Shown: positions 1 through 24,009 of the stretch, in pieces
How positions within the stretch are numbered: position 1 is the first letter of the stretch
Layout: every line of letters begins with the position of its first letter
Source of the DNA: Macrostomum lignano
Lineage: Eukaryota
Assembly: GCA_002269645.1 (NCBI GenBank)
Contig: NIVC01001316.1
Location: forward strand, 34,338-98,337
DNA: 64,000 nucleotides
Direction of reading: 5' to 3'
Translations under genes and position numbers: made by a program
The notes under the pieces: model-generated
What the model was told of the DNA's origin: nothing
The model's input: only the letters and a program-made list of their open reading frames with translations
Database searches by the model: none

Positions 1-2
1 AT

Positions 3-2135: not shown

Positions 2136-2139
2136 GGGT

Positions 2140-2805: not shown

Positions 2806-2912
2806 TTTTTAGGGAATTTAAAAAAAATCGACAACTAGTTGGTGGTGGCTAGATTTGTTTTACGTTTGGTTGCTTTGTCTGCAGTGACGGCAACGGGTCT
2901 CTTCGAATCTGC

Positions 2913-3587
2913 CTATTCATTGTCTATGAGCTCGATTCTACGCCTGATCTCAAACAAGTCGGTTGGATCACTTATTTCCCTTGTGCACCCTACCCTTGTG
3001 GTCTGTGGTGCCTCTTCAGCGTCAATGTTTTTAAGATTATGCAAGCGTTCAAGACGACTGATTCTTCTCAACGATTTCTGCCATTCGGTAAAAATTAAAT
3101 CTAAAAAAACTTTAATTGTATCAATTCTTACTTTGATTTGATCATGCAACGCTGTTGACTGAGTCATGAACTCTTCTAAATTCCTCACTTTACCTGTGTT
3201 TGTGAAAACTCCTTCTTCAAGAATGCGCATTCGTCTATCGGTGGAATTTCTCAGAAGATTAACTGTCGATGCTAAATTTGTTCTTAAGCCGTTGATTTGC
3301 GAGACTGCCGAAGTTATTTCTGACCTTAGTTCATTAGTTGCGTGTACAACCTGTACATAAAGCTTATCACTTTCAAACTTCTGCCTAGCTACTTTAAGCC
3401 TGAGATCTTCTATGTTAATTTGCAACTGGTGCATGGAGCGCTCTAATTGTTTCAGTCTGTTTTTATTCAGTTTGATCTCTGGGATCTCTTCGTCGCTGTT
3501 GATATATCGCCTGTCAAGGATGGATATATGAGCTGATGTAAGAGCGCTGTTGCCAGAAAAGGATTCACCTGCAAAATTAATAGACAT
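2913..3587 (-). CDS. Coiled-coil protein of Polinton A (224 aa), function unknown
   Basis: Heptad-rich ORF with a homologue at 17596-18405 and the A-rich AAAAATG start context seen on other element genes. Confidence 0.75.
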   Translation of the reverse strand: MSINFAGESFSGNSALTSAHISILDRRYINSDEEIPEIKLNKNRLKQLERSMHQLQINIEDLRLKVARQKFESDKLYVQVVHATNELRSEITSAVSQINGLRTNLASTVNLLRNSTDRRMRILEEGVFTNTGKVRNLEEFMTQSTALHDQIKVRIDTIKVFLDLIFTEWQKSLRRISRLERLHNLKNIDAEEAPQTTRVGCTREISDPTDLFEIRRRIELIDNE

Positions 3588-3602
3588 TTTTATTGAGAGA
3601 AT

Positions 3603-4403
3603 TTAAATCAGAATCTTTTTCTCCTTGTTGATCATGACAAACTGGTAACGCTGATTCCACTTGTCATAGCAAAGATTAACGAATTCCTCCTGTGAAATCT
3701 TTCTGTTTGAGTTTTTTGTTGGATTTATGAAATAGGCAGGCGCAATGACCTCATTGTAAAATCTTTTTAGCCTTTCCTGTGGAATGGTTGGAAACAGGAG
3801 AATCAGATTGCAGTTCCCGCGAATTGTTTTGTTCGGGAGCTCGAACCAATTCTGTGCAATGTAAATTACATTACAATTGTTATGTCGCCCTCTTGTAAAA
3901 TAGTTTTCTATCTGCTTCTGTGGGCCTGTCATACAATCATCAAAGACGATCAAATGCTTTCTCCCCTTTTCTAGCTCATCTGGATGGGGTAGAAGTTTGG
4001 TCTTTGGATCAACCTGTGGATCTCCATAGGTGAACACTTTAATGTTCTGCCATTTTTCATTGTCTTTGAGGTGCTTTGCATATTCGGCAGCTACAATTTC
4101 TGGGTTACTGGGAAGGCTCATTTGGTTATTAAAACATTGAATAATGTCCTCTTTGTTCAGTTTGTTTTGCAATCTAGAAATCAGAATTTTATACTCATCT
4201 TGATACAGTGTGGGAGAGTAGATGTGCAGAGTGTCATAGTCGATAAAGCCAGGTCTAAGAAGCATGTTAAAGACTCTGAATGTTTTACCTGAACCTGACG
4301 AACCAACAACAATGCATCTGAAGTGACTCGGGATTGACTCGTGATGAGAAAACTTAATCTGATTACGTGTCCAGTGAGGATTGAAGTCGTTTGAAAAGTA
4401 CAT
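3603..4403 (-). CDS. A32/FtsK-like genome packaging ATPase
   Basis: Walker A GSSGSGKT, Walker B LIVFDD, and YFTRGRHNNCNVIYIAQ motif. Confidence 0.95.
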   Translation of the reverse strand: MYFSNDFNPHWTRNQIKFSHHESIPSHFRCIVVGSSGSGKTFRVFNMLLRPGFIDYDTLHIYSPTLYQDEYKILISRLQNKLNKEDIIQCFNNQMSLPSNPEIVAAEYAKHLKDNEKWQNIKVFTYGDPQVDPKTKLLPHPDELEKGRKHLIVFDDCMTGPQKQIENYFTRGRHNNCNVIYIAQNWFELPNKTIRGNCNLILLFPTIPQERLKRFYNEVIAPAYFINPTKNSNRKISQEEFVNLCYDKWNQRYQFVMINKEKKILI

Positions 4404-4510
4404 TTTTTCTATGATGAAAAAATTTTTTTAATAATAAAACATTTAGAAGATGTGTCATTTTGGGACTAGTCTTATACTCTTACACGTCTTGTACCCTCGG
4501 AAAGTACCCT

Positions 4511-4897
4511 TTAGTCAAATTTGAAACCACTTCCTTTTTTAATGCTTGCTCTCATCTTTTCATAGACTGCAGGGTCTACACTGTCTGGATTTGGGGCCAG
4601 CGGAGCCAACGGGGCCGGCGGTTGAATCTCTTGTTTAGGTGTTCCAGTATCCTTTATCTTTTTCGCTGCTGTGGCTACACTGCCAGCCGCTTCGGCAACG
4701 TTCTTGATGTTCTCTTTGTTCTCTCCAATGACCTTAAAAATCTTGGCCCCTTGAGCGATCAAATCGGCAAGGCCATTTCCAGAGCGTTCTTTTCTTGGAT
4801 AGTGGCCTGCAGGGAAAAGTCCAGATCCGCGTTTAATGAGATTAAGTTCCTCTTTGTCATAGTATTTGTCAATGTCTTTTTCGAAAATAATTGGCAT
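4511..4897 (-). CDS. Small Polinton protein (128 aa; probable start MPIIFEK; KGSGFKFD C-terminus), possible virion core protein
   Basis: ATG at 4897 in an AAAAAGATG context. The ORF-track extension upstream is the neighbouring gene read in another frame. Homologue at 19414-19793. Confidence 0.65.
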   Translation of the reverse strand: MPIIFEKDIDKYYDKEELNLIKRGSGLFPAGHYPRKERSGNGLADLIAQGAKIFKVIGENKENIKNVAEAAGSVATAAKKIKDTGTPKQEIQPPAPLAPLAPNPDSVDPAVYEKMRASIKKGSGFKFD

Positions 4898-4913
4898 CTT
4901 TTTAAATAGAAAT

Positions 4914-5479
4914 TTATTTTTTGTTAAACCGTGAAAGCAAAAGTTCTCTTGCTCTTTTATCGATATATTTTCTCTCAAGCATTTTGTCCAGGATGTTGAC
5001 AAATTCTTTTCTATTCTCGTCTTTCATTCCGGTCTTTGCCGCTCCTAGAAGAACAGCTAACCGCTTGTAGAATTCAGGCATGCCTTTTCCGGAAGAGCTT
5101 GGAGGTGATTCGAATGATTGGTCAGAGGAGGAACTGTCATGTGGCGCTTGTCTTTGTTGAGGTGTGAATACTCTGTCATTGATTCGCTTCATTCGTTCTG
5201 GGGAGAGCCGCTCTAATTGTCGCCATTCATCTGGGCGCTGGTTTCTGTACTGGGAAATCTCATTTGGCCCTGCTTTTTCAAGCGCTTCTAGTACTTGTTC
5301 GGGTGTGATTTGTTGCTGTGGCGGTGGAGGTTGTTGTGGTTGTGGTTGTGTTTGTGGTTGCTGCTGTTGTGGTTGTTGTAGTTGTTGTTTTGGTTGCTGC
5401 TGTTGTGGCTGTGGTTGTTGTGGTTGTTGTCTTATGACCTCTTCTTGATCCGGCAAACCAAACCATTGTTTAAAGTATT
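4914..5479 (-). pseudogene. 3' half of the Gln/Pro-rich Polinton ORF (PZ-like C-terminus), split by the Helitron insertion
   Basis: Near-identical to 19810-20390; the 5' half is at 40762-41395. C-terminal motif RLAVLLGAAKTG...EFVNILDKML. Confidence 0.85.
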
Positions 5480-6581
5480 TCTTTTTCTTCTAAATATACT
5501 AAATCTCTAAGGTTTGTATGCTTGTCCATAACGCTCTAGTCTTCTAAATATACTAAATCTCTAAGGTTTGTATGCTTGAATGAATGAATGTCCATAACGC
5601 TCTAGAGACTGCAATTCTTCACCGATTTTGATCGCGTTTTCGCCAAAAGATTCAAAATTGTCTGGAAAGAAGACGGTTAAAATTTCTTTAATCTGCTTCA
5701 ATGCTAAAGGGATTAAATATTCGAAAAACTGTTTTAAATGGCCTTTTTCAATGCAAATTTTATCAGCCAGAAACTTCACTGCCAATTTTAATTGATTGCG
5801 CCAGAGCCAACTGATAAGAAAACTCACTCCGCTCCACTTAAAGGGGGGCAATAAAAAATTATTCTGGCTGCTGGCAGCCAGCTCTAATTAGCTAGTCTAA
5901 ATATACTAAATCTCTAAGGTTTGTATGCTTGAATGTCCATAACGCTCTAGAGATTGCAATTCTTCACCGATTTCGATCGCGTTTTCGCCAAAAGATGCAA
6001 AATTGTCTGGAAAGAAGACAGTTAAAATTTCTTGTATCTGCTTCAATGCTAAAGGGATTAAATATTCGAAAAACTGTTTTAAATGGGCTTTTTCAATGCA
6101 AATTTTATCAGCCGGAAACTTCACAGTCAATTTTAATTGATTGCGCCAGAGCCAACTGATAAGAAAACTCACTCCGCTCCACTTAAAGGGGGGCAATAAA
6201 AAATTATTCTGGCTGCTGGCAGCCAGCTCTAATTAGCTAGTCTAAATATACTAAATCTCTAATATTTGTATGCTTGTCCATAACGCTCTAGAGATCGCAA
6301 TTCTTCACCGATTTTCATCGCGTTTTCGCCAAAAGATTTCTAATCAGCCTGGGATTGTATGGTTAAAATTTCTTGTATCTGCTTCAATGCTTAAGGGATT
6401 AAATATTCGAAAAACAGTTTTAAATGGGCGAATTCAATGCAAATTTTATCAGCGAGAAACTTCACAGTCAATCTTAATTGATTGCGCCAGAGCCAACTGA
6501 TAAGAAAACTCACTGGACCCCACTTAAAGGGGGGCAATAAAAAATTATTCTGGCTGCTGGCAGCCAGCTCTGATTAGCTAG
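5480..6581 (+). repeat. Tandem mini-Helitron units: a 60-bp stub plus three ~340-355-bp units
   Basis: Units 5540-5895, 5896-6240 and 6241-6581 each end in the CTGGCTGC-tg-GCAGCCAG hairpin followed by ...AGCTAG. Confidence 0.85.
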
Positions 6582-7901: not shown

Positions 7902-8375
7902 AGTAGAAGGCATGAGGGGGCTTTTGGGACAAAATTTTTCACCTCCTCCATAATCCACCTAAATCCATCCATATTATCCCTGACAGAATCAGAAAAAAGG
8001 GGGGTCGCACTCGCTCCGAAAACGTCCTCCATAATCCACCTAAATCCATCCATATTATCCCCGACAGAATCAGAAAAAAGGGGGGTCGCACTCGCTCACA
8101 AAACATCCTCCATAATCCTATTAAATCCATCCATATTATCCCTGACAGAATCAGAGCATTATCCCTGACAGAATCAGAGCATAACAGTAGGACACCTGTT
8201 ATGCTCACTGACACTGACATAATCCACTGACATCCACCCATAGCATTTTCGAAACAATCAGAAAATAATCTGCATTCTTCTCCCCACATTCAATCCGCAA
8301 CGTGCTACCACATCCCTAAGACTTTAAATCATCAGCGCAGGGTCCTTACCCTTTGAAAAAATCTAAATTTTCTCT
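7902..8375 (+). repeat. Left terminal inverted repeat of Polinton B, with internal ~71-bp tandem repeats
   Basis: Reverse complement of 23535-24009 with roughly 8 mismatches and 1 indel counted by eye. Confidence 0.96.
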
Positions 8376-8397
8376 GAATCTTGATTGTCTTTTATAT

Positions 8398-9075
8398 GCT
8401 TACGAAGCTTCGTAAATTGAAATTTTCTGTCGCTAAAGATATTTACTCTGAACTACTACTTCTACTAGCAGTAAGTTAAAAACATATTTTAGTATTTTCT
8501 GCTTTTTCATTAAAGAGTTTACGAAGCTTCGTAAATTGAAATTTTCTGTCGCTAAAGATATTCACTCTAAACTACTACTTCTACTAGCAGTAGGTTAAAA
8601 ACATATTTTAGTATTTTCTGCTTTTTCATTAAAGAGTTTACGAAGCTTCGTAAATTGAATTTTTCTGTCGCTAAAGATATTTACTCTGAACTACTACTTC
8701 TACTAGCAGTAAGTTAAAAACATATTTTAGTATTTTCTGCTTTTTCATTAAAGAGTTTACAAAGCTTCGTAAATTGAAATTTTCTGTCGCTAAAGATATT
8801 TACTCTGAACTACTACTTCTACTAGCAGTAAGTTAAAAACATATTTTAGTATTTTCTGCTTTTTCATTAAAGAGTTTACGAAGCTTCGTAAATTGAAATT
8901 TTCTGTCGCTAAAGATATTCACTCTAAACTACTACTTCTACTAGCAGTAGGTTAAAAACATATTTTAGTATTTTCTGCTTTTTCATTAAAGAGTTTACGA
9001 AGCTTCGTAAATTGAAATTTTATGTCGCTAAAGATATTCACTCTGAACTATTACTTCTACTAGTAGTAGGTAAAA
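8398..9075. repeat. Array of six 119-bp repeats (last one partial), each with the palindrome TTTACGAAGCTTCGTAAA
   Basis: TACGAAGC registers at 8401, 8520, 8639, 8758 (variant), 8877 and 8996. Confidence 0.95.
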
Positions 9076-9236
9076 AAACGTGTCGAGTCAGATTCCAATT
9101 AACAAAAAAAACCGAATTATGTTGATTCAGTTATTATTTATTTTAATAATTATAAAGAGGCCTTTTTTTAACGACTATTCAATTTATATAAATCACCATT
9201 TCAAGCACAACAGACAGCCATGTAGTAGTCACTTCT

Positions 9237-10037
9237 TCACTCCATGACATCTACTCCGTCACCTGGGTCATCTACTTCGTCACCTGGGTCGTCTACTTCG
9301 TCACCTGGGTCGTCTCGAACGTCCACGGCCCAATTGGTCAGGGCAATCTCGGCTGTGACGCCTTCTTCGTTTACGTATTCGAACGTCTCATGCTCAACTT
9401 CCAAGGCCAGACGAAATTCTTCGTCGTCCTTGGTAAAATCGACGATTGCCTTCTTGTATTTCAAAATCGTTGTAAGGCAATATCCAGTAAATGGCAGAGC
9501 TATGTAACGCATCGCTAGCTCGTAGTACGCTACATACTCTTTCGCCTTTCGGACGGTCAATCCGAATTCCTCCGCAATCTTCTCGATAGGCCTAGTTTTC
9601 GTACTGAAGACGATTGCCCGAGCCTGCTCGAACATTCCTAGGCTTTTTAAGTTTTCTAGCGGCCGCAGACAGTCCGAAATAGTCACAAATATACTGCGGA
9701 CCTCTTCGCTAGATTTATTCCGTAGATCTTGTCCTAGGCTGGACAGCAGCGTCTTAAGCAGGCCACCGTCAATGCGAAGACCTTTTGCGGCCAGATAAGT
9801 GAGCCTCCGTTTGAGATTTCGTAGGAATGTCTCCTGCTCGTTGTCGGCATTGCGATTCATTGGTCTCCTTTTATGTTTTTTACTCTTGTTTTTTCCATCT
9901 TCTTCTAGCTTGTCAAGTTTCTCCTTAAACTTCTTCAGCTCCTCCGGCGACCAAGACGCTAACGCCTCCGCAAGCGAAATATCGCTTTTCGCATGCAGCT
10001 CCTTCAATTTCTCGATTGTTTTCTCAATGTTGCTCAA
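9237..10037 (-). CDS. Orphan Polinton ORF (up to 266 aa): basic NLS-like patch, HTH-like segment and acidic DDPGDEV x3 tail; putative DNA-binding regulator
   Basis: Long open frame. KNKSKKHKRRP; PIEKIAEEFGLTVRKAKEYV. The track start at 10037 is TTG and the first in-frame ATG is at 9860. TATA box upstream; AATAAA downstream on the minus strand. Confidence 0.7.
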   Translation of the reverse strand: MSNIEKTIEKLKELHAKSDISLAEALASWSPEELKKFKEKLDKLEEDGKNKSKKHKRRPMNRNADNEQETFLRNLKRRLTYLAAKGLRIDGGLLKTLLSSLGQDLRNKSSEEVRSIFVTISDCLRPLENLKSLGMFEQARAIVFSTKTRPIEKIAEEFGLTVRKAKEYVAYYELAMRYIALPFTGYCLTTILKYKKAIVDFTKDDEEFRLALEVEHETFEYVNEEGVTAEIALTNWAVDVRDDPGDEVDDPGDEVDDPGDGVDVME

Positions 10038-10117
10038 TGTGAAAATTGTGGCAATCGTTGTCGATAGACTTGATAGTGAATTTAGCGCATAACCCCCAGA
10101 CGAGGATTATGATTCGC

Positions 10118-10212
10118 TTTTATAGCTTTGGAAGGCGTGGGATTCTCTTTTTATTCTAGAATATTCTAGAAGCAGAATTCTAGAAGGAAAACACTTTTCG
10201 TTGCTATAAATA
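10118..10212. promoter_or_regulatory. Bidirectional promoter: TATAAAA (minus, 10118-10124), heat-shock element (10154-10185), TATAAATA (plus, 10205-10212)
   Basis: TTCtaGAAtaTTCtaGAA at 10154-10171 is four perfectly alternating nGAAn units; a further TTCtaGAA lies at 10178-10185. Confidence 0.7.
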
Positions 10213-10314
10213 CGCCGGAATTAGACCACCCTATCCCGTCTCTCCCACTCCCATATAATCCCCTTTACAAGCTTTCGCGCAAGGTTTTCTTTCCAACCAC
10301 TTGAGGCACTTGAA

Positions 10315-10815
10315 TCATTCTGCTCTCTCTACCCCCAGCTCTTTCAGCAGTCTTCCCAATTCATTGTTAGGAGCGCACAAAATAAACTCTGCTCCCGTGC
10401 GTTCGCCCTCTCTCCCCGTGCACTCGCCCTCTCTCCCCAAACACCCGCCCTCGGCGTACACCCCCAACCCCAGTTTTGTCTTACTAAAAATAACAGCTTT
10501 AACTAGCTTCCGAGCGATCGACTCACGAAATCCGCTTGAAATCCCCATATTGTCGAGTCTCCTGAGCATTTCTTTGTCCCAGCGATTCTTCTCCTCAGGA
10601 AAATCTCCATACTTAACGTCGTGCCACATGCAGACAGAGTCTAGCTCGTTCACAGGCTCATGCCCAGGATTTGGGTTGTTGTTTCCATCCAGCTGTATTT
10701 CAAGAGGATTCAAAGGCCCGCAATATTTATAGCCGGGAAGTGTCCAGCCTTTGTTTGGATGAGGAAGCTTTTCTATCAGTCCATGTGAATCTAACTTACC
10801 ACCAGAGCGTTGCAT
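10315..10815 (-). CDS. Parvovirus-VP1-type phospholipase A2 protein (PLA2X-like)
   Basis: LPGYKYCGPLN Ca-binding loop and catalytic D...HD.KY (ELDSVCMWHDVKYGD). Confidence 0.9.
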   Translation of the reverse strand: MQRSGGKLDSHGLIEKLPHPNKGWTLPGYKYCGPLNPLEIQLDGNNNPNPGHEPVNELDSVCMWHDVKYGDFPEEKNRWDKEMLRRLDNMGISSGFRESIARKLVKAVIFSKTKLGLGVYAEGGCLGREGECTGREGERTGAEFILCAPNNELGRLLKELGVERAE

Positions 10816-10844
10816 TATTTTATTTTATATTTTCTTTTTAAAAA

Positions 10845-11881
10845 ATGACAGATCAGAAACTTAAAAAACTCTACTACAGCGACAAAGGATTCTTTGTAGG
10901 AAAAAATGCAGTCACCAAACTCGCAGAACTAAGTAAGGAACCAAAAGCTAAAGTAGAAAAGTGGCTCTCTAAGCAAGCAGTCTACCAAGTCTATTTCCCA
11001 CCAGTAAAATTTGAAAGGCCCCATTTCAGTATTTATAAACCTAATGAGGCGCACCAAGCAGATCTTTTGTTTCTCCCCAACGACTCAGGCTACAAGTATG
11101 CTCTCACAATTATTGACATTGCTTCCAGATATAAGGAAGCTCGCCCACTCAAGACGAAGAAGTCAGAGGTTGTTGCCAGCGCACTGCAAGATATTTATAA
11201 AAACTCTCCGCTCACATACCCCCAAACCTTTATGACCGACCCGGGTAAGGAATTCATGGGTGCAGTGAAATCCCTTATGGAAAAGCACAATACAGAGATT
11301 CGCTACGGAAGAACAGACCTGCACAGGGATCAAGCGTACGTTGAGAGATTCAATCTAACTCTAGCCAAGAGACTATTCACTAAGCAGACAGCGCAAGAAC
11401 TCAAACTGAGTGCGGGGCAGTACTATACCAAGTGGACAGAAAGACTCCCCACTGTTATAGAGCAACTGAACAATGAAGTCACACGCATGACTGGATTGAA
11501 ACCATCCCATGCAATTAAACAAGACACTGTCGAACTTAAGGCATCTCATAGAACAGACAACAACACGACAACCCCACACAACACACACAACACAAAACAC
11601 ACCTCGAACTACCCTAAGCTTCCAGGAGTTGAATCACCATACATACTGACAAACTCTGAGTTTCTACGCTTTTTATATCACCTGGAGAGCTAGAGAAAGA
11701 CACCAAAAGAAGAGCTACAGATCCATACTTCAGCCTTGATGTGCATAAAATAGACAGACATTTTACCTCCGACTCCGGTGACTATTACTTTTTATCTCAA
11801 GCCTTTAACCCTAAATCCCCCACGCGGTCATTCACTAGAGCTGAACTCCTAGTGATACCAGCTGACACAGAAATTAATTAA
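10845..11881 (+). pseudogene. Retroviral-type (rve/DDE) integrase; two 1-nt frameshifts near the 3' end
   Basis: HQADLLF, IIDIASRY, TDPGKEF, ERFNLTL. The C-terminus continues in shifted frames as PGELEKDTKRRATDPYFS and PTRSFTRAELLVIPADTEIN* (stop 11879-11881). Confidence 0.92.
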
Positions 11882-11897
11882 AATATTAAAATAAAAA

Positions 11898-12343
11898 ATG
11901 ACAAAGATTGAAACCAGAACCATCAATAAACTCAATAAAATCATTGAATCAAAGAAACAGGTATTATATCAATTAAAGGTGCCAAAGTAAAAATCGATCC
12001 CACGCAGCAAATACTTCAGTGTAATGAGCAAAGACACAGCATCACAGATGAAAAGTCAGGAGGAATCCTACCATTAGCAGCTCTTATTCCGATCATTGCA
12101 GGCGCTGTAAGTGCCGCAGGTGGTGTAGCTGGAGGTGTAGCAACTGCTGTTAAAGCTGGGAATGATAGAGCCCACCAGCTGGAATTGCAAAAGATTGCAA
12201 GAGACAAAGGTATAACAATTAAGGCAGGAGAGGGCTGCCCCGATCGTGATGATTGTGAGAATGAAAATTCTATAAGCAAGTCTGACATTGTCAAAGCAAT
12301 CATGACACTGCACAATGCTGGGTTTACAATAATGCGCATGTGA
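11898..12343 (+). pseudogene. Small Gly/Ala-rich amphipathic virion protein (GGILPLAALIP motif; cupiennin-like/pVI-like type); one frameshift; not in the ORF track
   Basis: ATG at 11898 in AAAAAATG context. Adding 1 nt near 11963 gives a 148-aa ORF containing KSGGILPLAALIPIIAGAVSAAGGVAGGVATAV. Confidence 0.7.
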
Positions 12344-12483
12344 ATGTGAATGTGAAAGTGATGAGGTTTAAAACCCCACTTTATCCAGCTTCATAAACCT
12401 AACGCTACTGATAGGATGTAGAAACAGTTCAACTTTTCTATCAGGGTAGTAACCCTTAAATTTTTTTTATTTTAGAGAAAAAA

Positions 12484-15400
12484 ATGCCAAAAGCTAATCC
12501 AGCAAAAGATTTAGTCAACAAACATTTTTCAAAAGGCGTCTCATTTCAAGACAAAAGTAATTCACTAAGAGAAGCATGCAAACAAAAGTTCAACACCGAC
12601 CCTGGTCATCTGGGAAGCTATGAAAAACAGTTGGAAATCATCAAACAATTAGAATCCAACCAGTATGCGCCTATACAAAATCCTGCAAAGGAACACCAAG
12701 AGAGGAGTCGCAACTTAGTTAACAAATATGAAACTCTCACTGGTGAAAAAGCAAAGTACCCACAAAATAAGCAGGAACAAGAGAAATTAGAGCAATTAAT
12801 CCATTTAAAAGAGTCGGAGCTTGCCACTGAAAAAGATTAATTTTGCACAGAGGAAGTTTACAGAACATTACATAGAGTACACAATCCCAATTAACGGCAC
12901 CAACGGCACCACCGCAAACATCTACGACTATAAAGACAGCATCCAATCAGTTGTTGATCACACACTCAAAACACGCAAGACTTTTAAACTACAGATATCA
13001 TTCAAGATTGCGTTTTAAAATGCCTGCAAAACCTACTGAGCATCTCGAGTATTACATGACAACAAAGGCAAAGCCATTCACCCCTACAGACACACTGGAT
13101 CCTTTCCTTCAAGATGTCACTAAGAAAATTGAAGCGTTTACATCCAGAGGTTCCGGATGGGTCGTAGGAGGGATTCAAAGAGCAATTGTCATGGTCATGA
13201 AATATGACCCACTTAAAGCCTCCTCTTATATAGAGCTCCCGCATTAGCTAGCCGGTAAAAAAGCTTGCATAAATGTTAAAAATAAAGACAATTGCTGTGC
13301 TCTATGGGCAGTTCTTTCTGCACTTCTTCATGATAGGGTACCTCACCACCCCGAAAGAACCTCAAATTATCAAAATTATTTCAAGGACTATCTCATCGAA
13401 TGTGAAAAGAAGGGAATCAGGTTTGACAAAGGAGGCTTGGCGATCTCTCAGATCCCAAAGCTAGAAGAAGTGTTTAATAACAAAATTAGAATCACAGTCT
13501 TTGAGTGGAGTGAAAAAACTGAGAAAGTTCAACCGGTCAGATGTAGCAAAGACGTTTTAGATCCGAGGGGAAAAGGCGGACTGAAGTGGATCTTCTAGTG
13601 ATTGGTAATTTACTAGAGGAGGCTCACTATGTTTGGATTAAAGATCTTTCAAGACTCATTCACAAGCAGTTGAATAATCATCACGAGGCTGTTGCCATCT
13701 GCCGCTTGTGCCTTAAGCATTACAGTGGACCTGAACGCTTTGAAAAACTAGCAGAGCATGAATTATCATGCGAGGATCACCCAACAAACTGCTCTCTTCC
13801 TTCAGCTGAAGAGAAGTATCTCCGGTTTAAGAATTATCATAAGATGGAGAAGCTCCCATTTGTTGTATATGCTGATTTCGAATGCTCAATCGTGCCAGAA
13901 ACTCAAAAACAAACTCCAACTCAAAAACATATCCCCAATTCAGTAGCATATGCCTTTATTAATACAAAAGGACTTGTTGAGTATAATTATTTCTTTGGAG
14001 AGCAGTGTGTGGAGCAGTTTATTGCCAGAATGTTAGAGTTGCAAAAAGTGATTAGCACCCTTCAACCTGTTCCAATAATGATGACTGAGGAGGATGAAAG
14101 CAATTTCCTATCAGCAACTCATTGCCACATCTGCAGGAAACATTTAACTTGCACTAATATTAAAAACCCCACCGTTAGGGACCACTGCCACTATACTGGG
14201 AAATTTAGAGGTGCAGCGCATAACACCTGTAATCTAAAGCTAAAATCGAACATTCATGATCTAACAATATTTTGTCACAACGCAAAGAACTATGACATGC
14301 ATTTAATAGTTGAAAAAATCGGCATGATTCCAGACATACACCTTGATTGCATCGCAGAGAACAAGGAGAAGTTTAAGTGTGTTGATATTAAACAGGATAA
14401 TTCGGGTACAGGTAAAATAAGACTGAAGGATTCATATCAATTTCTAGCTGCCAGTCTAGACGAACTAAGCAAGAATCTAAAAGATGAACAATGTACATAT
14501 ACAAAGATGTTTGCAAGTAAAATTAACAACAGTGATGAATCATTTAAACTTTTAAGAAAGAAAGGCTTCTACCCCTATGAAAATATTACTGGGTATCACG
14601 TATTTGAAGATGGTTTACCACCACAGGAGAAGTTCTTTTCAAAACTAACAGACTCTGAAATCTCTGACAAAGACTATGAGCACGCGAAGCATGTCTATAA
14701 TTACTTTAATTTTCAAAACTTTTCCAGTATCACCTGCTTTACCTCTACACAGATGTGTTTCTGCTGGCCGATGTGTTTGAAACCTTCAGATACACCTGGT
14801 ACACAGCATATGGCCTCGATCCAGCACATTATGTGTCTCTGCCTGCCACTAGCTGGGAATCTTTGCTTAAAATGAAATGGGATCAAGATCCAGATTGGTA
14901 CATTGAACTTCTTACAGACATTGACATGTACAATTTTGTCGAATCGTCAAAGCGAGGGGGAATCTCAATTTGCGTTAACAGGTATGCAAAAGCAAACAAT
15001 CCCTACATTGAATCTTACAATAAGGAGCAGCCCTCAAACTACATTACTTACTTGGACGCTAATAATCTCTACGGGTGGGCGATGAGTCAAGATCTTCCAG
15101 TTAGAGATTTTCGATGGCTACCCTCATCAGAATTCAAATGGGACTTTTCATTGGCTGCCATTTATGAGGTTGATGTTTACATTCCACCAGAGCTTCACGA
15201 CTATTTCTCTGACTTTCCACCCTTCCCAGAGAACATCAAGTGCCCGAAAATAATCGAAACTCCCAATGATAATAATGGAACTTGGCTGTCAGGAACAGAA
15301 AAAGAACATACAGAGAAACTAACACAGAATCTAAACAACAAGACACGTTACAAAATCCATTACAAACTGCTTCAGTATTTTATCTCACTTGGTTGCAGGG

Positions 15401-16325
15401 TCACCAAAGTTCACAGGGCTCTTACATTTACAGAGGAAGCGTGGATGAAACCCTACATTGATAAGAACACCCAGTTTAGGACCAAAGCAACCAACGACTT
15501 TGACAAGAACCTCTTTAAGTTGGCCAACAACTCTGTCTATGGCAAGACTCTTGAAATGAGCGGAAAAGAACAAACCTGAAACTTGTTACCTCATCAGAGC
15601 CTGATGTTATTCAGGCAAATATGTCAAAGCCAACATTCAAAGAACTCCATATCTTTAATAGCTACTTAGGTGTGATCATATTTTACAAAACCAAGGTGAC
15701 GCTGCGCAAGCCGATCTATACAGGTGTCACTGTTCTCGACGAATCAAAACGTCTGATGTACCAATTCTTCTATGGCATGAAGCAGCAGTACAAGGATAAA
15801 ATGAAACTCTTGTACACCGACACAGACAGTTTTATTATGGACATTCAAACAGAAGACATTTATCAGGACATGCTGCAGCAAAAAGATTTGTTTGACTTGT
15901 CTGAGTATGATGAATCTTGCAGGACACAGAATGGTGATCAAGTGTTTGACGCTACTAACAAGAAAGTGATTGGGAAAATGAAGGACGAGATTGCTGGTGA
16001 CATAATCACTGAATTCATTGGGTTGAGAGCAAAGTCCTATTTTATAAAATGTGAGTCGTCAGACCCAATCAAAAAATCAAAGGGAATTCCGAAACGTGTA
16101 GTTAGGAAGGAAATTAATGAAGCTGAATACAGAGACGCCTTGAATTGCAACAAAAAGACATCACATGAGTTCTCAAAGCTACAATCTAAAAACCATATTA
16201 TTCACACAATTCAGCAAAAGAAGATTGGACTGTCAGGTGCAGATAACAAAAGATTCATTTTTGATGACAATATTAACAGTCTACCGTTCGGGCACTGGAG
16301 ATTAGGTTTAGGAGGTGGAGGTTAG
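12484..16325 (+). pseudogene. pPolB of Polinton B, broken by ~5 frameshifts and one in-frame TAG (13245-13247)
   Basis: Fragments join in order: GSGW...KYDPLKASSYIELP, KKACINVKN, CHIC...VRDHCHYTGKFRGAAHNTCN zinc finger, exonuclease YADFE, RKKGFYPYE, then polymerase motifs ~99% identical to 3-1646. Confidence 0.95.
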
Positions 16326-16423
16326 GTTTAGGAGGTGGAGATTAGGTTCGGGCACTGGAGGTTAGGTTCGGGCATTGGAGATTGGGTTTAGGTTTAAGAG
16401 AAAGTTTAATAAAACTCATAAAA

Positions 16424-16825
16424 ATGACGACAAATAACTTTCTTGAAGATTTGGCTAACGAACTGGAAATCCCAAACTTTAGAGGAATATTTATGAGGGA
16501 CACTCTGCCTGATTTTCCTCTAAGAAAAGAATGCGGCATCATGAACTTTGACACCACCGATAAGCCAGGATCTCATTGGGTTTGCTGGGTGATTGATCCC
16601 GATCGCAAGCACAAGTGTTATTACTTCGATAGCTATGGGACGGCAGTACCAGAAGAGCTAAGAAATTATATGAAGGGAAAAAATAATAAAAAAATTTATC
16701 GCTCAGACTTTATTCTCCAAGGTCTTAGCAGTGATATTTGCGGTGAGCTGTGCATGACTGTTTTGTATGCAATGACCAAAACACGAAAGACCTACAAGGA
16801 AATTATTCGTACCTGTGTTTCATAG
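16424..16825 (+). CDS. Adenain-like cysteine protease (Polinton B)
   Basis: Nearly identical to 1734-2135; probable ATG at 16424. Confidence 0.9.
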   Translation: MTTNNFLEDLANELEIPNFRGIFMRDTLPDFPLRKECGIMNFDTTDKPGSHWVCWVIDPDRKHKCYYFDSYGTAVPEELRNYMKGKNNKKIYRSDFILQGLSSDICGELCMTVLYAMTKTRKTYKEIIRTCVS

Positions 16826-16829
16826 GGGT

Positions 16830-17487
16830 TCATTGTGCATTTCTCGTTGTACTTCTCGTTGTCCTTCTTTCCACATAATGTTGAAGAACTTTCTCGAGTT
16901 CATTTCTCAGCTGACTCATGTCATCAGTACCGACCATGTTCAAGTTCATTCGAATTGATTGTTCATAAAGATCCTGAATGGTTTTGAACTCATCCTCTGA
17001 AATGAACTTATCCTCGATTGCCCTTGAAATGTACCCTATGATTGATGTGTGCACCCCTTTCTCTTTTACTTGCTTCTCCTGTAGCTGCTTTAGTTTTTTT
17101 CGCCTGTTTCGCGCTAATGCTCCAGTAATTGCTGAAATAAGTCCACATGCAGCACCCACAGAGCCGAGCGGGATTGCGATTGGGGCTGTGATGACTGGCA
17201 ACACTGAGACAGCTGCAGCAGATCCAGATAGAACAGACACAGATCCTAGAATCATATTGCTGTAGTCGAAAAATTTACAGTGGTTGTCATAGCGCTTAAT
17301 TTTTTTTTGTGTTGTGGAAAATATTTTTTTCAAGATCATCGCGCATTTTTTGAATCTCCACTAGTCGAAACTGTTGAGAGTTACAAGTAATGACGGGGTA
17401 GAGTTTTTGTTGCTCATATTGGGGTGCACTAGGTGCACTAGGTGTTGTGGGAGCGTTCGGATCATAAAGAGAATTTTGAGCATCCAT
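16830..17487 (-). pseudogene. Accessory membrane protein (GasderminX-type), with a 1-nt insertion in a poly-T run near 17300
   Basis: Two track ORFs join into a homologue of 2140-2805. Confidence 0.75.
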
Positions 17488-17595
17488 TTTGTAGGGAATT
17501 TTTTTAAAAAAATCGGCAACTAGTTGGTGGTGGTTAGATTTGTTTTACGGTTGATTGCTTCGTCTGCAGTGACGGCAACAGGTCTCTGAATTTGC

Positions 17596-18405
17596 CTATT
17601 CATTGTCTGTGAGCTCCATTCTACGTCTGATCTCAAACAAGTCGGTTGGATCACTTATTTCCCTTGTGGTCTGTGGTGGTGCGTCTTCAACGTCAATGTT
17701 TTTGAGATTATGCAAGCGTTCAAGACGACCGATTCTTCTCACCGATTTCTGCCATTCGGTAAAAACTAAATCTACAAAGACTTTAATTGCAGTAATTCTT
17801 ACTTTGATTTGATCATGCAACGCTGTTGACTGAGTCATGAACTCTTCTAAATTCCTCACTTTAACTGTGTTGGTTGCGACGTTTTCTTTAATTCTATCAT
17901 GCAACGCTGTTGACTGGTTCATGAACTCTTCTAAATTATTCACTTTAACTGTGTTGGTTGCGACGTTTTCTTTAATTCTATCATGCAACGCTGTTGACTG
18001 GTTCATGAACTCTTCTAAATTCCTCACTTTAACTGTGTTTGTGAAAACTCCTTCTTCAAGAATACGCATCCGTCTATCAGTGGAATTTCCCAGAAGATTA
18101 ACTGATGATCTCAAGCCGTTGATTAGCGAGACCGCCGAAGTTATTTCTGACCTTAGTTCATTAGTTGCGTTTAACAACGGCACATAAAGCTTATCACTGT
18201 CAAACTTCTGTCTAGCTACTTTAAGCCTGAGATCTTCCATGTTGATTTGCAACTGGTGCATGGAGCGCTCTAGGGCTTTCAGTCTGTTTTTATTCAGTTT
18301 GATCTCTGGGATCTCTTCATCAGTGTTAATGTAGCGCTTATCAAGGAAGGAAGTTGTGAGAGTGCTGTTGCCTGTAGTTGATTCACCTGCAAAATTAATA
18401 GACAT
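17596..18405 (-). CDS. Coiled-coil protein (269 aa) with three 28-aa tandem repeats
   Basis: Homologue of 2913-3587; 84-nt repeats register at 17836, 17920 and 18004. Confidence 0.75.
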   Translation of the reverse strand: MSINFAGESTTGNSTLTTSFLDKRYINTDEEIPEIKLNKNRLKALERSMHQLQINMEDLRLKVARQKFDSDKLYVPLLNATNELRSEITSAVSLINGLRSSVNLLGNSTDRRMRILEEGVFTNTVKVRNLEEFMNQSTALHDRIKENVATNTVKVNNLEEFMNQSTALHDRIKENVATNTVKVRNLEEFMTQSTALHDQIKVRITAIKVFVDLVFTEWQKSVRRIGRLERLHNLKNIDVEDAPPQTTREISDPTDLFEIRRRMELTDNE

Positions 18406-18420
18406 TTTTTAAATGAAAAA

Positions 18421-19221
18421 TTAAATTAAAATTCTTTTCTCCTTATTAATCATGACAAACTGATAAGGTTGGTTCCACTTTTCATAGCATATGTTAACAA
18501 ATTCCTCCTGTGATATTGTTCTGTTAGAGTTCTTAGCTGGATATGTAATGTGAGCTGGGGCAATGACTTCATTATAAAATCGTTTCAGTCGATCCTGTGG
18601 TATGGTTGGGAAAAGGAGAATCAAATTACAGTTACCTCTAATTGTTTTATTTGGCAGTTCAAACCAGTTTTGGGCAATGTAAATAACATTGCAGTTATTG
18701 TGTCTACCCCGGGTGAAATAATTTTCTATCTGTTTCTGGGGACCGGTCATGCAGTCATCAAAGACAATCAGGTGCTTTCTCCCCTTTTCTAGTTCATCAG
18801 GTTGAGGTAAGAGTTTAGTTTTAGGATCTATCTGTGGATCTCCATAAGTGAAAACTTTAATATTTTGCCATTTTTCATTGTCTGGGATGTGCTTTGCGTA
18901 TTCAGTGGCTACAACTTCCGGGTTGCTGTTGAGGTCTTTTTGATGTCTAAAACATTGAATAATATCTTCCTTGTTGAGTTTGTTCTGTAGGCCCGCTACT
19001 AGCATTTTATACTCATCTTGATACAGAGTGGGTGAATAGATATGTAGTGTGTCATAATCGAGGAATCCAGGTCTGAGGAGCATGTTAAAAACTCTGAAGG
19101 TTTTCCCTGACCCAGATGAGCCAACAACAATGCATCGGAAGTGCCCTGGAATTATCTCGTTGTGAGCAAATTTTATCTGATTGCGTGTCCAGTGGGGATG
19201 AAAGTCGTTTGTGAAGTCCAT
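18421..19221 (-). CDS. A32/FtsK-like packaging ATPase (Polinton B)
   Basis: Walker A and B motifs; about 34 aa differences from 3603-4403 by hand alignment. Confidence 0.95.
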   Translation of the reverse strand: MDFTNDFHPHWTRNQIKFAHNEIIPGHFRCIVVGSSGSGKTFRVFNMLLRPGFLDYDTLHIYSPTLYQDEYKMLVAGLQNKLNKEDIIQCFRHQKDLNSNPEVVATEYAKHIPDNEKWQNIKVFTYGDPQIDPKTKLLPQPDELEKGRKHLIVFDDCMTGPQKQIENYFTRGRHNNCNVIYIAQNWFELPNKTIRGNCNLILLFPTIPQDRLKRFYNEVIAPAHITYPAKNSNRTISQEEFVNICYEKWNQPYQFVMINKEKRILI

Positions 19222-19413
19222 TTTTTATGTAAAAAAACTTTTTCTTTTTAAACTTGTGTATTTAAGACGCGTGTGTCTTTTTTCGGGATGTGTATGTGTG
19301 TGTCTCTTTACGGGATATGTGTCTTTTTTCGGGTTGTGTGTGTCTTTTCGACTAGTCCTACATCCGACTAGTCCTACACCCTCACACCTCTTTTACCGTC
19401 AGGGTGCACCAAA

Positions 19414-19793
19414 TTAGTCAAATTTAAAACCGCCTCCTTTCTTATATTCAGCTCTCATCTTTGCGTAGATGGCTGGATCGACACTATCTGCACTCGGTGC
19501 AAGGGGTTGAATATCTGGTATTGATTTCCGGGTTTCATGAACCGTATCCTTTATCTTTTTGGCTGCTGTGGCTACACTGCCAGCCGCTTCGGCAACGTTC
19601 TTGATGTTCTCTTTGTTCTCTCCAATGACCTTAAAAATCTTGGCCCCTTGAGCGATCAAATCAGCAAGACCGTTCCCTGAGCGTTCTTTTCTTGGATAGT
19701 GGCCTGCAGGGAAAAGTCCAGATCCGCCTTAATGAGATTAAGTTCCTCTTTGTCGTAGTATTTGTCAATGTCTTTTTCGAAAATAATTGGCAT
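19414..19793 (-). pseudogene. Small protein (homologue of 4511-4897), frameshifted near 19727
   Basis: ATCCGCCTT here versus ATCCGCGTTT in copy A (1 nt shorter). Confidence 0.65.
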
Positions 19794-19809
19794 CTTTTTA
19801 AATAGAAAT

Positions 19810-21024
19810 TTATTTTTTGTTAAACCGTGAAAGCAAAAGTTCTCTTGCTCTTTTATCGATTTATTTTCTCTCAAGCATTTTGTCCAGGATGTTGACAAAT
19901 TCTTTTCTATTCTCGTCTTTCATTCCGGTCTTTGCCGCTCCTAGAAGAACAGCTAACCGCTTGTAGAATTCAGGCATGCCTTTTCCGGAAGAGCTTGGAG
20001 GTGATTCGAATGATTGGTCAGAGGAGGAACTGTCATGTGGCGCTTGTCTTTGTTGAGGTGTGAATACTCTGTCATTGATTCGCTTCATTCGTTCTGGGGA
20101 GAGCCGCTCTAATTGTCGCCATTCATCTGGGCGCTGGTTTCTGTACTGGGAAATCTCATTTGGCCCTGCTTTTTCAAGCGCTTCTAGTACTTGTTCGGGT
20201 GTGATTTGTTGCTGTGGCGGTGGAGGTTGTTGTGGTTGTGGTTGTGTTTGTGGTTGCTGCTGTTGTGGTTGTTGTAGTTGTTGTTTTGGTTGCTGCTGTT
20301 GTGGTTGCTGCTGTTGTGGCTGTGGTTGTTGTGGTTGTTGTCTTATGACCTCTTCTTGATCCGGCAAACCAAACCATTGTTTAAAGTATTTGTATTTTCT
20401 AAACCTGTTCAAGTCAATCCTGTTTTCATGTAAAACTTTCAAAACACCGTTGTTCTTGAGAATGTCTATGTCCCTCTCTAAAGCGAAGGTAACCAGATCT
20501 CTATAATTCTTTAATTGCTTCTCGGATATTTTTTCCTGATTTTTAGTCATGTAGTCGAGTAAACTTTGAGTGAAGGGGATTCGTTTAGTTTCTGCGCCTT
20601 TATTGATTGAAATAGTTTCCTTCGTCACTTCAATGTTGTAATCCGCCGGTTCCCCGGTGATATTTTTTCGCCAGGCGCTAATTCCAAATATATATTTTCC
20701 ATCATCCGTTACGGGGCCAAAAAAGTTATCCGTCACTTTCATCTGCACTGGTTGTCCTGGTTGCTGAGCCTGTGGTTGTCCTGGTGAAGATGGGATTTTA
20801 CCCAATGTGTTTTGCAAGTGGCTCTCTTGAATATCATCAACTGCTTCCTTCACAGTGTCGAGGTTTTTCTTCGCTTCTGTGTATCCGGGTTTGTGAAATT
20901 CGGTGGCTGCTTGGACAAACTCATTGTAGGATTGTTGCTCCTTATTTATTAGCCCGGTAACTCGTTTCTCTGCTTGTGCTAGCTTCTCCAATTCAGATAT
21001 CTGCTGTGTACTTTTTCGCTTCAT
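19810..21024 (-). CDS. Gln/Pro-rich Polinton protein (PZ-like C-terminus); a premature TAA at 19861-19863 removes the last 17 aa
   Basis: 387-aa ORF; copy A has TAT at the equivalent codon and continues to ...SRFNKK*. Confidence 0.8.
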
Positions 21025-21054
21025 TTCTTATTTTATTTTATTTTTAGTTAAAAA

Positions 21055-22350
21055 ATGAACGACCCACTGACACCAGTTTTCTACAAAATTAACAAGCCTA
21101 TTTTGAGTGATGATAGCACAATCAAAGCGACACAAGTTAGAGTTCCGAGTCACGAGAACCAGAATGAAACTAATCTTGGTCCTGGCCAAACACTGACATT
21201 TACATACAATGGATGTTCGTCTTTGGTCAGTGTCCACAGTCTAAGGAGCGGCTTCTATATGACGTTTCAATTCAAAACTAAAGGAGGCGCAGACGCCGCT
21301 CATGCTAATGATGATCTACACAATGCGGATGTCGCACTAACCAGTAATTTCTGGGCTTATATGTTCAAAGAGTTTAATGTGTCCAATGGAAGTACAGAGT
21401 TGGAAAGAATAGCAAACTTTGGTGTGGTCCATGATACCCAGTGCTTGATTGAGAACCTGGATTTTATTCAGATGGGGAGCGGTGCTGGATTCATCCCCAA
21501 TGAACAGACAGGAGATGAGAATGACCCTGGTTACAAAAAGAGAAAGGAGAGATACAACTATGCTCTTGCTGGTGAGAACGATGCTGCTAAGAATCCGTTG
21601 TTTAGGTCTGTAGATATTTTTGTACCTTTGAGGTTTATGAGTGGTTTCTGTAATAGTTTCAATCGGTTGACAAGCAACTTTAGCTACACATTTAGATTGA
21701 CTAGAGATGATCGGAACAGAGGAATTTGGTCGGGGGCCAATCATACATCGATGGAGATTAAGCTAACTAGCGTGGAGCTGTACTTAGAAATTATTGAGCC
21801 CAAGACTGCACTCAAAGCTGAATACTTGAAGGCGATTGAGAAAGACATTGATGTTGCTTATACAGCTTATATGTGCAGAGATGAGCGGAATGACGCAAGA
21901 CACAATATTTGCATTAAAGAAGGCTCCTGTAGCAATCCAAGGTACATTATTGTCACTATGAGGAATACAACTAATGTAGGTAGATATCTACATGGAAACA
22001 TTCGATCGATTCAGCATGAGATCAGTGACAATTTATACCCTGCATTGCCACAAAATGGGAATTTCTCGGAGAACAAGATTAGTAAGTTTTACAATGAACT
22101 GTCGGACTTGGCTGTCAAAGAGAATAACGGTATTGTTTTGACAACCTTGCAGTATAAAAAACTATATCCAATATTTGGTGTTGATGTGACTGCTAGACAA
22201 ATGCCTACAGACAATAGCCCTGTTAACATTGTGACTAATATCGAGCGGAAAGAATTTGGTGCCGCAACGGCTGTTGATCTGTTTATTATCTATGCATTTG
22301 AGAGGAAGATCAAGGTCAATATGATCAATAACTCGTCTAGTAAAGTTTGA
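21055..22350 (+). CDS. Major capsid protein (double jelly-roll, hexon-like), intact
   Basis: 431 aa, beta-rich; Polinton MCP-like segments NPRYIIV, YPALPQNGNFSENK and PIFGVDV; position next to the penton gene. Confidence 0.85.
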   Translation: MNDPLTPVFYKINKPILSDDSTIKATQVRVPSHENQNETNLGPGQTLTFTYNGCSSLVSVHSLRSGFYMTFQFKTKGGADAAHANDDLHNADVALTSNFWAYMFKEFNVSNGSTELERIANFGVVHDTQCLIENLDFIQMGSGAGFIPNEQTGDENDPGYKKRKERYNYALAGENDAAKNPLFRSVDIFVPLRFMSGFCNSFNRLTSNFSYTFRLTRDDRNRGIWSGANHTSMEIKLTSVELYLEIIEPKTALKAEYLKAIEKDIDVAYTAYMCRDERNDARHNICIKEGSCSNPRYIIVTMRNTTNVGRYLHGNIRSIQHEISDNLYPALPQNGNFSENKISKFYNELSDLAVKENNGIVLTTLQYKKLYPIFGVDVTARQMPTDNSPVNIVTNIERKEFGAATAVDLFIIYAFERKIKVNMINNSSSKV

Positions 22351-22373
22351 ATAATTTTTTTTTTAATAAAAAA

Positions 22374-23232
22374 ATAGAAGCCATAGCCGAAAGACTGAAC
22401 AACATTGTTTCACACTCTAAGGAGAGCATTCCAATCACTGTAGCGGGTCGCATTACTGAGTCAAACGGAATCTTCATTCAAAAATTGGAGCAACCACTTC
22501 GTTTGGATCCCGAGGCGAATTACCACGTCTATCTCAATGATTTCACTGGGTGGTCAAATGTTCCCAATGTGACAGCGGAAAATAACAAGTTTTATTACAA
22601 ATGGAAGCGTACTACAACAGAGGTTGTGATATTTCCTGTCAGCACACAGAGCGTGGATACTTATAATTACTTCTTGGAGAACGTCTTCACTAAACGAAAG
22701 CATTTTGAGATACCGGATGAAAGCAAACCAGAAAATAAACTGTTCCCTGTTAGATTAACTTATGATCTAACTGTCATGAGAGTTGTCTTGCAAGTTCATA
22801 AGGACGCAGAGGTAGAGTTTAAAGATGGCACTTGGTATCGCGAGTTGGGATTTGAAAAGAGAGTTTATGGTGGCGCCACAGACCAAAGCCCGCTGCAGGC
22901 GCCTGGCACTGTTGCTGTGTCCCGGCTAATATCCGGTATGTACTTGGCGCCAAATATCGCTGACATTGTCAAAGGTTTGAATATATTAATTCGCAGCAAT
23001 CTGAGCCATGATTGGATATTCAAGGGCAAACGAAGCAACATACTTTTTAACATTTCAAACTCTGTTGCTGGTGGCAAAATGCTTGTGCAAAAGCCAAACC
23101 CCGTGAAAAAGAGTCATTCTGAGTAATAGAGAGATACATGAAATCATTTTGCAGTTTGAAACAGAGGATGGCGTTGGTGTCGATTTTAACGGGGAAGAGT
23201 TTGTGCTAACAATTATTATTGAGAGAATGTGA
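22374..23232 (+). pseudogene. Minor capsid protein (penton-like); start codon appears as ATA; one frameshift near 23110
   Basis: AAAAAAATA-GAA context at 22374. PNVTAENNKFYY motif. The shifted frame ends ...EDGVGVDFNGEEFVLTIIIERM* (stop 23230-23232). Confidence 0.8.
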
Positions 23233-23293
23233 GTCGTCTTCAGACTTGTAAAATTACGATATAAGCCGCCAGGTACAACCGTGTAGTTGGCTA

Positions 23294-23530
23294 CTACAAC
23301 TGCCTTATAACTTCAGCAAAGTTATAATAGCTGTCAAAATTGTTAATGACTACTCCGTGTTTTTCAAACCAGTGAGATTTAAGTGCTTGATTAATATTAG
23401 AGGCATTGATATCAACGCCGGGCCAATATTTTCTCATGTACTCGCTGCATTCAAGTTTGCATCGGTACTTGCTCTTGAAATTAGGCTCATGCGCTTTGTA
23501 ATAAGAACCTGGAGAGACAACTGGAAACAT
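23294..23530 (-). CDS. Small orphan ORF (78 aa, MFPVVSPGSYY...) starting 5 nt inside the right TIR boundary
   Basis: TAAAAATG start context shared with other element genes; no recognisable domain. Confidence 0.45.
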   Translation of the reverse strand: MFPVVSPGSYYKAHEPNFKSKYRCKLECSEYMRKYWPGVDINASNINQALKSHWFEKHGVVINNFDSYYNFAEVIRQL

Positions 23531-23534
23531 TTTT

Positions 23535-24009
23535 AGAGAAAATTTAGATTTTTTCAAAGGGTAAGGACCCTGCGCTGATGATTTAAAGTCCTTGGGATCT
23601 GGTAGCACGTTGCGGATTGAATGTGGGGAGAAGAATGCAGATTGTTTTCTGATTGTTTCGAAGATGCTATGGGTGGATGTCAGTGGATTATGTCAGTGTC
23701 AGTGAGCATAACAGGTGTCCTACTGTTATGCTCTGATTCTGTCAGGGATAATGCTCTGATTCTGTCAGGGATAATATGGATGGATTTAATAGGATTATGG
23801 AGGATGTTTTGTGAGCGAGTGCGACCCCCCCTTTTTTCTGATTCTGTCGGGGATAATATGGATGGATTTAGGTGGATTATGGAGGACGTTTTCGGAGCGA
23901 GTGCGACCCCCCTTTTTTCTGATTCTGTCAGGGATAATATGGATGGATTTAGGTGGATTATGGAGAAGGTGAAAAATTTTGTCTTAAAAGCCCCCTCATG
24001 CCTTCTACT
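23535..24009 (-). repeat. Right terminal inverted repeat of Polinton B
   Basis: Reverse complement of 7902-8375. Confidence 0.96.

Follow-up and report, generated by a model that had tools for sequence, protein, structure and literature searches.

The window analysed here, a stretch of 64,000 nucleotides of Macrostomum lignano DNA, contains a Polinton/Maverick element in which positions 10116-10213, judged by their sequence, are a near-exact copy of the promoter core of a host hsp90 gene (A/T box, heat shock element or HSE, and TATA box). The core, which was likely captured, faces a minus-strand cargo gene, and it is reasonably probable that it serves this gene as a one-way, HSF-dependent promoter.

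The first-pass annotation had placed its promoter motifs inside a Polinton, correctly: core genes, inverted ends and a target duplication were all found. The element and its genes lie as follows.

7902..24009, no strand: Polinton/Maverick element of 16.1 kb with AG..CT ends and 479-bp terminal inverted repeats
9237..10040, minus strand: cargo gene toward which the promoter points; its product is predicted to have N-terminal helices, a ParB/KorB-like helix-turn-helix and an acidic tail
10225..10312, minus strand: probable remnant of another, diverged phospholipase-A2-like gene, derived from its 3' part (translation judged by eye)
10315..10815, minus strand: phospholipase A2-like (PLA2) gene (PF08398, E 6.5e-13)
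10845..11693, plus strand: retroviral-type integrase (PF00665, E 2.1e-09)
13844..16325, plus strand: protein-primed DNA polymerase B, pPolB (PF03175), in three separate frames in the window copy
16424..16825, plus strand: adenovirus-type protease (PF00770)
18421..19221, minus strand: packaging ATPase (PF04665)
21055..22350, plus strand: double-jelly-roll major capsid protein (PF21738)

The 479-bp terminal repeats are 98% alike, and a 6-bp target duplication, AAGAAT, flanks 7902-24009 on both sides; terminal repeats, AG..CT ends and a 6-bp duplication are the Polinton criteria of PMC8097293. With integrase, pPolB, ATPase, protease and capsid genes between such ends, the element is a Polinton/Maverick. 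ATPase, protease and capsid all scored over the Pfam cut-offs, while the open reading frame at 22776-23126 gave no match in the Pfam search of the element. The window copy is probably a damaged member, because its polymerase lies in three frames and its cargo start is broken near 10037. The translation of 10225-10312 resembles, by eye, residues near the end of a 166-aa phospholipase protein, and this remnant suggests that the promoter/cargo cassette arrived by recombination.

Two more partial copies of the family occupy 1-5494 and 40762-42321 (81-95% and 87% identical to the main element). A 119-bp tandem array (8400-9077; 5.7 copies, 96%) separates the left terminal repeat from the cargo gene, in sister copies too, and the terminal repeats contain 81-82-bp repeats (7944-8155 and 23755-23965). 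Elsewhere in the window we noted Helitron-like helicase pieces (PF14214, Pif1 2B) in a GC-rich stretch at 45489-49390, as well as minisatellite arrays with a 23-bp unit (53 and 130 copies) together with short TTAGGG runs in interstitial position (27961-33913, 30028-30099 and 52999-62504).

In a genome search with window positions 10000-10320, 40 of 59 candidates were scored: five matched over the full length (family A, 98-100%) and 35 matched 10140-10192 only. Among the 30 loci fetched, four were the promoter of a host cytosolic hsp90 gene. These four are near-identical copies of one host locus (97-99.6% over long stretches); the copy that was read through is intact, has introns and ends in MEEVD. 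The promoter region of the window comprises the following features.

10116..10131, minus strand: TATA box (10118-10124) with flanks; 15 of 16 bases equal the hsp90 TATA region (by eye)
10140..10192, minus strand: 53-bp block in which 51 of 53 bases agree with the promoter of host hsp90 (genome search and alignment)
10154..10171, no strand: perfect four-unit HSE (pattern scan)
10178..10185, no strand: an additional pair of nGAAn units whose phase differs from that of the four-unit HSE; host hsp90 has them too
10204..10213, plus strand: A/T box reading TATAAATA, a form present only in the five family-A copies

Outside the GAA/TTC triplets, 33 of 35 bases of the block are identical to hsp90, and because the match extends beyond the triplets in this way, we regard the likeness as homology. 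Convergence on the HSE consensus was considered as a source of the match and is ruled out by the same 33 bases. Eighteen hsp70 promoters, serving as controls, reached just 25-34 of 53 bases, as against the 51 of hsp90. Across the hsp90 loci (10-20 kb each), the block is the sole match of at least 45 bases to the Polinton. In the window copy, the spacer between HSE and TATA box is 11 bases shorter than that of hsp90 (by eye), and the upstream GC-rich part of the hsp90 promoter is missing. Upstream of the A/T box, another 10 bases agree with hsp90 (1 of 454 control windows reached at least 10); this likeness was spotted post hoc and is excluded from the evidence.

All motifs of the first-pass annotation were recovered at their positions. 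The octamer TTCTAGAA occurs at 10154-10161, 10164-10171 and 10178-10185; its third copy lies 6 bases from the four-unit HSE and is therefore out of phase with it. TATAAAA on the minus strand (10118-10124) and TATAAATA on the plus strand (10205-10212) leave gaps of 29 and 19 bases to the HSE units, respectively. Four units 29 bases from a minus-strand TATA box is the layout of a canonical heat-shock promoter, as had been proposed. That the window holds no other four-unit HSE was also confirmed, the match staying single even with one mismatch allowed. The pattern appeared in 0 of 100 dinucleotide shuffles of the window and, in the genome (764 Mb), 526 times versus 107 times for a reversed control; such hits are still rare, as had been argued, but at about 0.04 per 64 kb they are ten times more frequent than first estimated. 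The minus-strand TATA box and an HSE conserved in relatives, as anticipated (kept in 5/5 sister copies, with four perfect units in 4/5), uphold the earlier reading as a heat-shock promoter, which had nonetheless missed the hsp90 origin and included a two-way activity that now looks doubtful.

The A/T box of host hsp90 reads CTAAAAATAG, which we take to be MEF2-type. The same decamer served as a Mef2 site in a schistosome study (PMC4117452). It was seen beside HSEs in 16 of 18 host hsp70 promoters (by eye), and in 4/4 and 2/3 hsp90 promoters. A promoter grammar of HSF plus MEF2-type sites in M. lignano is suggested.

The block has a third holder, a dispersed small non-coding repeat (the X repeat; 17 loci examined, e.g., C1585:162540-163030) that carries 56-78 bp of the hsp90 promoter, namely A/T box and HSE without a TATA box. 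One X-repeat insertion, on three contigs, lies directly behind a TMEM17/216-like gene.

Transfer from host to element is the simplest reading and, by the sequence comparisons, probable. The hsp90 promoter shares box and HSE with the X repeat, HSE, spacer and TATA box with family C (described below), and HSE and TATA flanks with family A; in the hsp90 loci compared, none of the flanks of the X repeat or of the Polinton families was found at the promoter. A second cytosolic hsp90 paralog (three copies), which differs from the first at 48 of 80 four-fold sites, retains a weak HSE and 3' flank (33 bp, 79%, E 0.003), which suggests that host hsp90 has had the motif for a long time. In six hsp90-family loci of greater distance, the stretch fetched contained no HSE. 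We consider it quite unlikely that, conversely, a mobile element (X repeat or Polinton) gave the block to the hsp90 promoter. Such a course could draw on the X repeat, whose box and HSE are 83-96% identical to hsp90, with box triplets unchanged in 14/14 haplotypes, and on the known role of transposons as HSE donors to genes (PMC6927752); but hsp90 shares different parts with each party while bearing the flanks of neither element, the old paralog retains a trace of the motif, and CTAAAAATAG beside an HSE is the general host layout, as the hsp70 promoters indicate. The X repeat complicates the direction, and we regard the host-to-element course as likely rather than proven.

The hsp90-type module is widespread among Polintons of this host. 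Other copies share 113-127 bp with hsp90, TATA box included, at 83-89% identity (36 matches; 40 scored of 85 candidates). Family C comprises 20 further loci with about 118 bp in common with hsp90, reaching from the A/T box to beyond the TATA box (83-89%); in three of its haplotypes, 72-77 of 93 non-triplet bases match hsp90. All ten family-C loci that were extended to 18-20 kb have integrase or PLA2 genes close to those of the window (integrase mostly 83-96%), and nine have further core genes. Their cassette is inverted relative to the window, the promoter lying near the terminal repeat and pointing in the same direction as integrase and polymerase. An exact 34-letter pattern occurs 44 times in the genome (4 hsp90, 4 family A, 1 X repeat and 35 others); at the 28 other sites examined, a cargo gene lay beside the promoter in 28/28 and other Polinton DNA in 27/28.

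Within 15 family-C haplotypes, none of 18 triplet columns had changed, versus 29 of 93 others (Fisher p 0.0025), the haplotypes being related and most family-C copies having been found with the HSE block as query, which favours intact HSEs. The four-unit HSE is perfect in 11/13 family-C and 3/4 family-A haplotypes, and in 1/14 X-repeat haplotypes, where end deletions in several copies were scored as mismatches. Constraint on the HSE triplets across the Polinton family is thus apparent from the alignments. In the X repeat, the HSE triplets decay while those of the A/T box persist, and this decaying block provides a built-in neutral control for the constraint in Polintons.

The fast-evolving cargo gene has a 259-aa frame in two of four sister copies; in the window, its start being damaged near 10037, a 207-aa ATG frame (9237-9860) remains. 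Relatives gave 119 matches in the genome, and of 109 locus records (some places were fetched twice), 92 fall into 20 subtypes; full-length subtype pairs are 27-43% identical. Eight subtypes include copies with hsp90-type promoters, two have a second HSE and TATA module, and ten have no HSE within 350 bases. Some copies of the HSE-bearing subtypes are also without an HSE, while one copy (L155) has a third four-unit HSE. A cargo tree was built from 16 natural C-terminal frames and five outside proteins, leaving out the 207-aa, 225-aa, P92, I131 and O93 types, and in this tree, where the family-A row is a long branch, a clade of the six hsp90-type rows was rejected (AU p 0.0012). Since the proteins behind the hsp90-type promoter do not form one clade, promoter and cargo have likely been reshuffled among unrelated subtypes. 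The 207-aa and 225-aa types show weak homology to the main family (HMM E 0.033 and 0.004, two targets).

Several cargo subtypes are split by a GT..AG intron at one place, after a K/R-T-R motif. Such introns are consistent with transcription by host polymerase II; intact vertebrate Mavericks are reported to be intronless (PMC8097293).

Structure models of the cargo reached pLDDT 84 and 89. The C-terminal domain was folded alone, as the wide search with the full-length model was dominated by the N-terminal helices, and its best structural match was the KorB DNA-binding domain (rmsd 3.6 over 78 aligned residues; the Z of 6.7, the highest obtained, is one that common helical arrangements also reach). 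Helix-turn-helix proteins made up the majority of the top 50 structural matches, and weak Pfam HTH matches were found in a few of 18 cargo members. Models and matches are suggestive only of a ParB/KorB-like helix-turn-helix DNA-binding protein: the cargo shares with the ParB/KorB/SopB domain the predicted helix-turn-helix and helical subdomain, yet has no significant sequence or Foldseek match to it and no visible ParB CTPase domain. Foldseek against the PDB (both models) and viral structures (full-length model) gave nothing at E 0.001, with E values near 1. Pfam returned no match over the cut-off for the cargo proteins, nor for 40 of 112 relatives; the single-protein search and that among longer proteins found no cargo homologue, the first Atlas search gave weak matches only, and scans of viral contigs found no relative.

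A word-index search retrieved three matches, all M. lignano proteins, and the family amounts to 112 clusters in a 50%-identity library. A distant relative scored 0.92-0.93 by features to DUF3102/UPF0137 clusters (the feature-matched clusters contained DUF3102 in 16-37% or UPF0137 in 65%). Of seven metagenome cargo loci, two lie beside pPolB sequence and none has an HSE, three of them having fewer than 200 bases upstream. The metagenome relatives beside pPolB point to a widespread, unannotated Polinton gene family. That the cargo might act as a regulator of element genes or DNA is an evenly balanced proposition.

A second, unrelated four-unit HSE and TATA module (type II) occupies the same Polinton slot before the 240-aa and 225-aa cargo types. 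It gave 14 matches, 12 of which were fetched; nine lie beside Polinton genes, whereas three (L171, L177 and the promoter context of fragment L170) are not clearly placed. Behind none of the 12 fetched matches was there a recognisable host heat-shock gene that could be the donor. Since here an unrelated HSE module precedes related genes, type II points to selection for HSF input as such.

Upstream of the HSE-less subtypes, we saw TATA boxes and repeated TGACTCA/TGACTAA-like motifs, which we take to be AP-1-like. These motifs may hint at other stress inputs.

We deem it very unlikely that the hsp90 piece is a neutral passenger, acquired by chance and carried along in a lineage that amplified recently, without any function for the element. 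Half of the cargo subtypes do lack an HSE module, the haplotypes are related, and the search was biased toward intact HSEs. Nevertheless, the triplets were spared while adjacent bases changed, the module stands upstream of the start of many unrelated cargo subtypes, and in family A the spacer is roughly one helical turn shorter.

A two-way promoter had been put forward in the first-pass annotation, and of this claim the part that stands is the plus-strand TATA-like sequence, which is kept in family A: TATAAATA is identical in 5/5 family-A copies and absent from the 15 other element haplotypes. However, its distance of 18 bases to the HSE puts it precisely where hsp90 has its MEF2-type A/T box CTAAAAATAG, and it would open a long antisense leader. 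A truly two-way family-A promoter, in which the plus-strand TATA restores HSF-driven transcription toward integrase and polymerase, thus appears doubtful to us, even though it would be compatible with the best explanation and might compensate for the inversion of the cassette relative to family C. Besides the conservation of the octamer, its low frequency by chance (a TATA-like octamer in 0.7% of shuffles of the 45 flanking bases), the palindromic HSEs and the different cassette orientations of families A and C speak for it. But family C also has a MEF2-type box at this place, and read the other way this box is often TATAAATA; variants of the A/T box thus easily mimic a TATA box. Moreover, the leader to the integrase ATG would measure 599-611 bases and run antisense through the PLA2 gene; it would contain 3-5 upstream ATGs and, in 3/5 family-A copies, an AATAAA at +146. 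By eye, a reverse TATA is also missing from copies that carry the type II module in this orientation.

For the one-way promoter that we favour, the following sequence of events can be envisaged. A Polinton family would have captured the promoter core of host hsp90; under heat, or when proteins misfold, host HSF would become active, a factor for which the genome has genes (7 matches); HSF would bind the copied HSE and drive the cargo from the minus-strand TATA box; and integrated copies would thereby make an early, stress-coupled DNA-binding regulator. HSF binding and function of the copied HSE are probable. Between a true heat switch and a promoter that is simply strong in general, the switch seems somewhat favoured.

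The heat response of the donor bears on this last point. In a M. lignano heat-shock table (PMC12801592), the log2 increase is 13-14 for two hsp90 clusters and 1.2-1.4 for three others. Domain scores differ between donor and second paralog by +3.1/-0.8 bits and between the mild and the strong group by +3.5/-0.8, a match that is indirect and made across Pfam versions, with one mild cluster unplaced; it suggests that the donor may be the hsp90 with high expression and mild induction, as opposed to the paralog that rises about 2^13-fold. The captured piece could accordingly be mainly a strong general promoter with slight heat induction and HSF acting at a basal level, like its probable donor, the housekeeping hsp90; we regard this as unlikely. 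The score pattern of the donor, fitting clusters induced just 2.3-2.6-fold, is in keeping with such a promoter, as is the lack of a broad Polinton induction among the domain-labelled rows of the table (PMC12801592), where two pPolB transcripts with very low counts appear, one rising (log2 2.8, mean count 4) and the other falling (-1.6), and where the domain labels include no rows for PLA2, ATPase or protease; the cargo genes carry no domain label and so fall outside this domain-based look-up. Against it, the upstream GC-rich part of the hsp90 promoter was left behind, and an unrelated HSE module is found before related genes. Four of 24 sequence runs (RNA status partly guessed, treatment and strand unspecified) are uninformative either way. 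All four consist of contigs; in three of them, short pieces of low depth cover the cargo gene but leave 10081-10280 empty, while the fourth, which may contain DNA, has a contig through the TATA region.

Stress-coupled HSEs are known from other mobile elements. The nearest case, likely in the same host, is that of Ty3/Mdg4 LTR elements of M. lignano, which have repeatedly and independently acquired canonical HSEs upstream of their TATA boxes; these HSEs are needed for heat induction in vivo, and their mutation abolished the heat response of reporters (PMC12801592). The present element differs from them in being a dsDNA virus-like Polinton with an internal single-gene promoter and a traceable host donor, and PMC12801592 gives no hit for Maverick, hsp90, MEF2 or captured. 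The Ty1/copia element ONSEN of Arabidopsis is likewise a selfish element that uses host HSF through HSEs (PMC3907296, PMC12801592, PMC6927752), but in this plant retrotransposon the HSE drives the whole element, and we met no report that names a donor promoter. Caenorhabditis Helitrons are DNA transposons with HSEs bound by HSF-1 (PMC6927752); their HSEs form dense clusters that mainly affect adjacent host genes, whereas here one hsp90-derived module faces a gene of the element. Finally, the Drosophila Hsp70-alpha-beta (alpha-gamma) repeats at 87C join a fragment of a duplicated hsp70 promoter to transposon sequence and make heat-induced RNA from it, but they are local, non-coding rearrangements whose RNA is degraded (PMC4691828), unlike the dispersed family with coding genes and constraint described here. 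In the open-access literature searched, HSEs were not reported from any Polinton, nor had an hsp90 or other donor promoter been traced for any element; a Polinton case with a traced hsp90 donor appears to be new.

For Polintons integrated in animal genomes, whose particles have not been observed (PMC8097293), our finding names a candidate trigger, HSF, and a candidate first gene, in an animal that already offers heat-shock RNA data and HSE reporters. Going further, one may tentatively ask whether animal Polintons have a prophage-like stress switch, i.e., a variable slot beside the terminal repeat with an early DNA-binding regulator and swappable host stress promoters; we rate this general proposal as speculative and, if anything, somewhat unlikely. 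Such a slot would have taken the hsp90 core at least once and passed it among unrelated regulator alleles, in addition to a second, independent HSE module, and if this is true, host HSF would be a natural trigger for activating animal Polintons. The case also illustrates how the copying of a host promoter can make a mobile element stress-responsive in a single step, here with a likely donor that is still identifiable.
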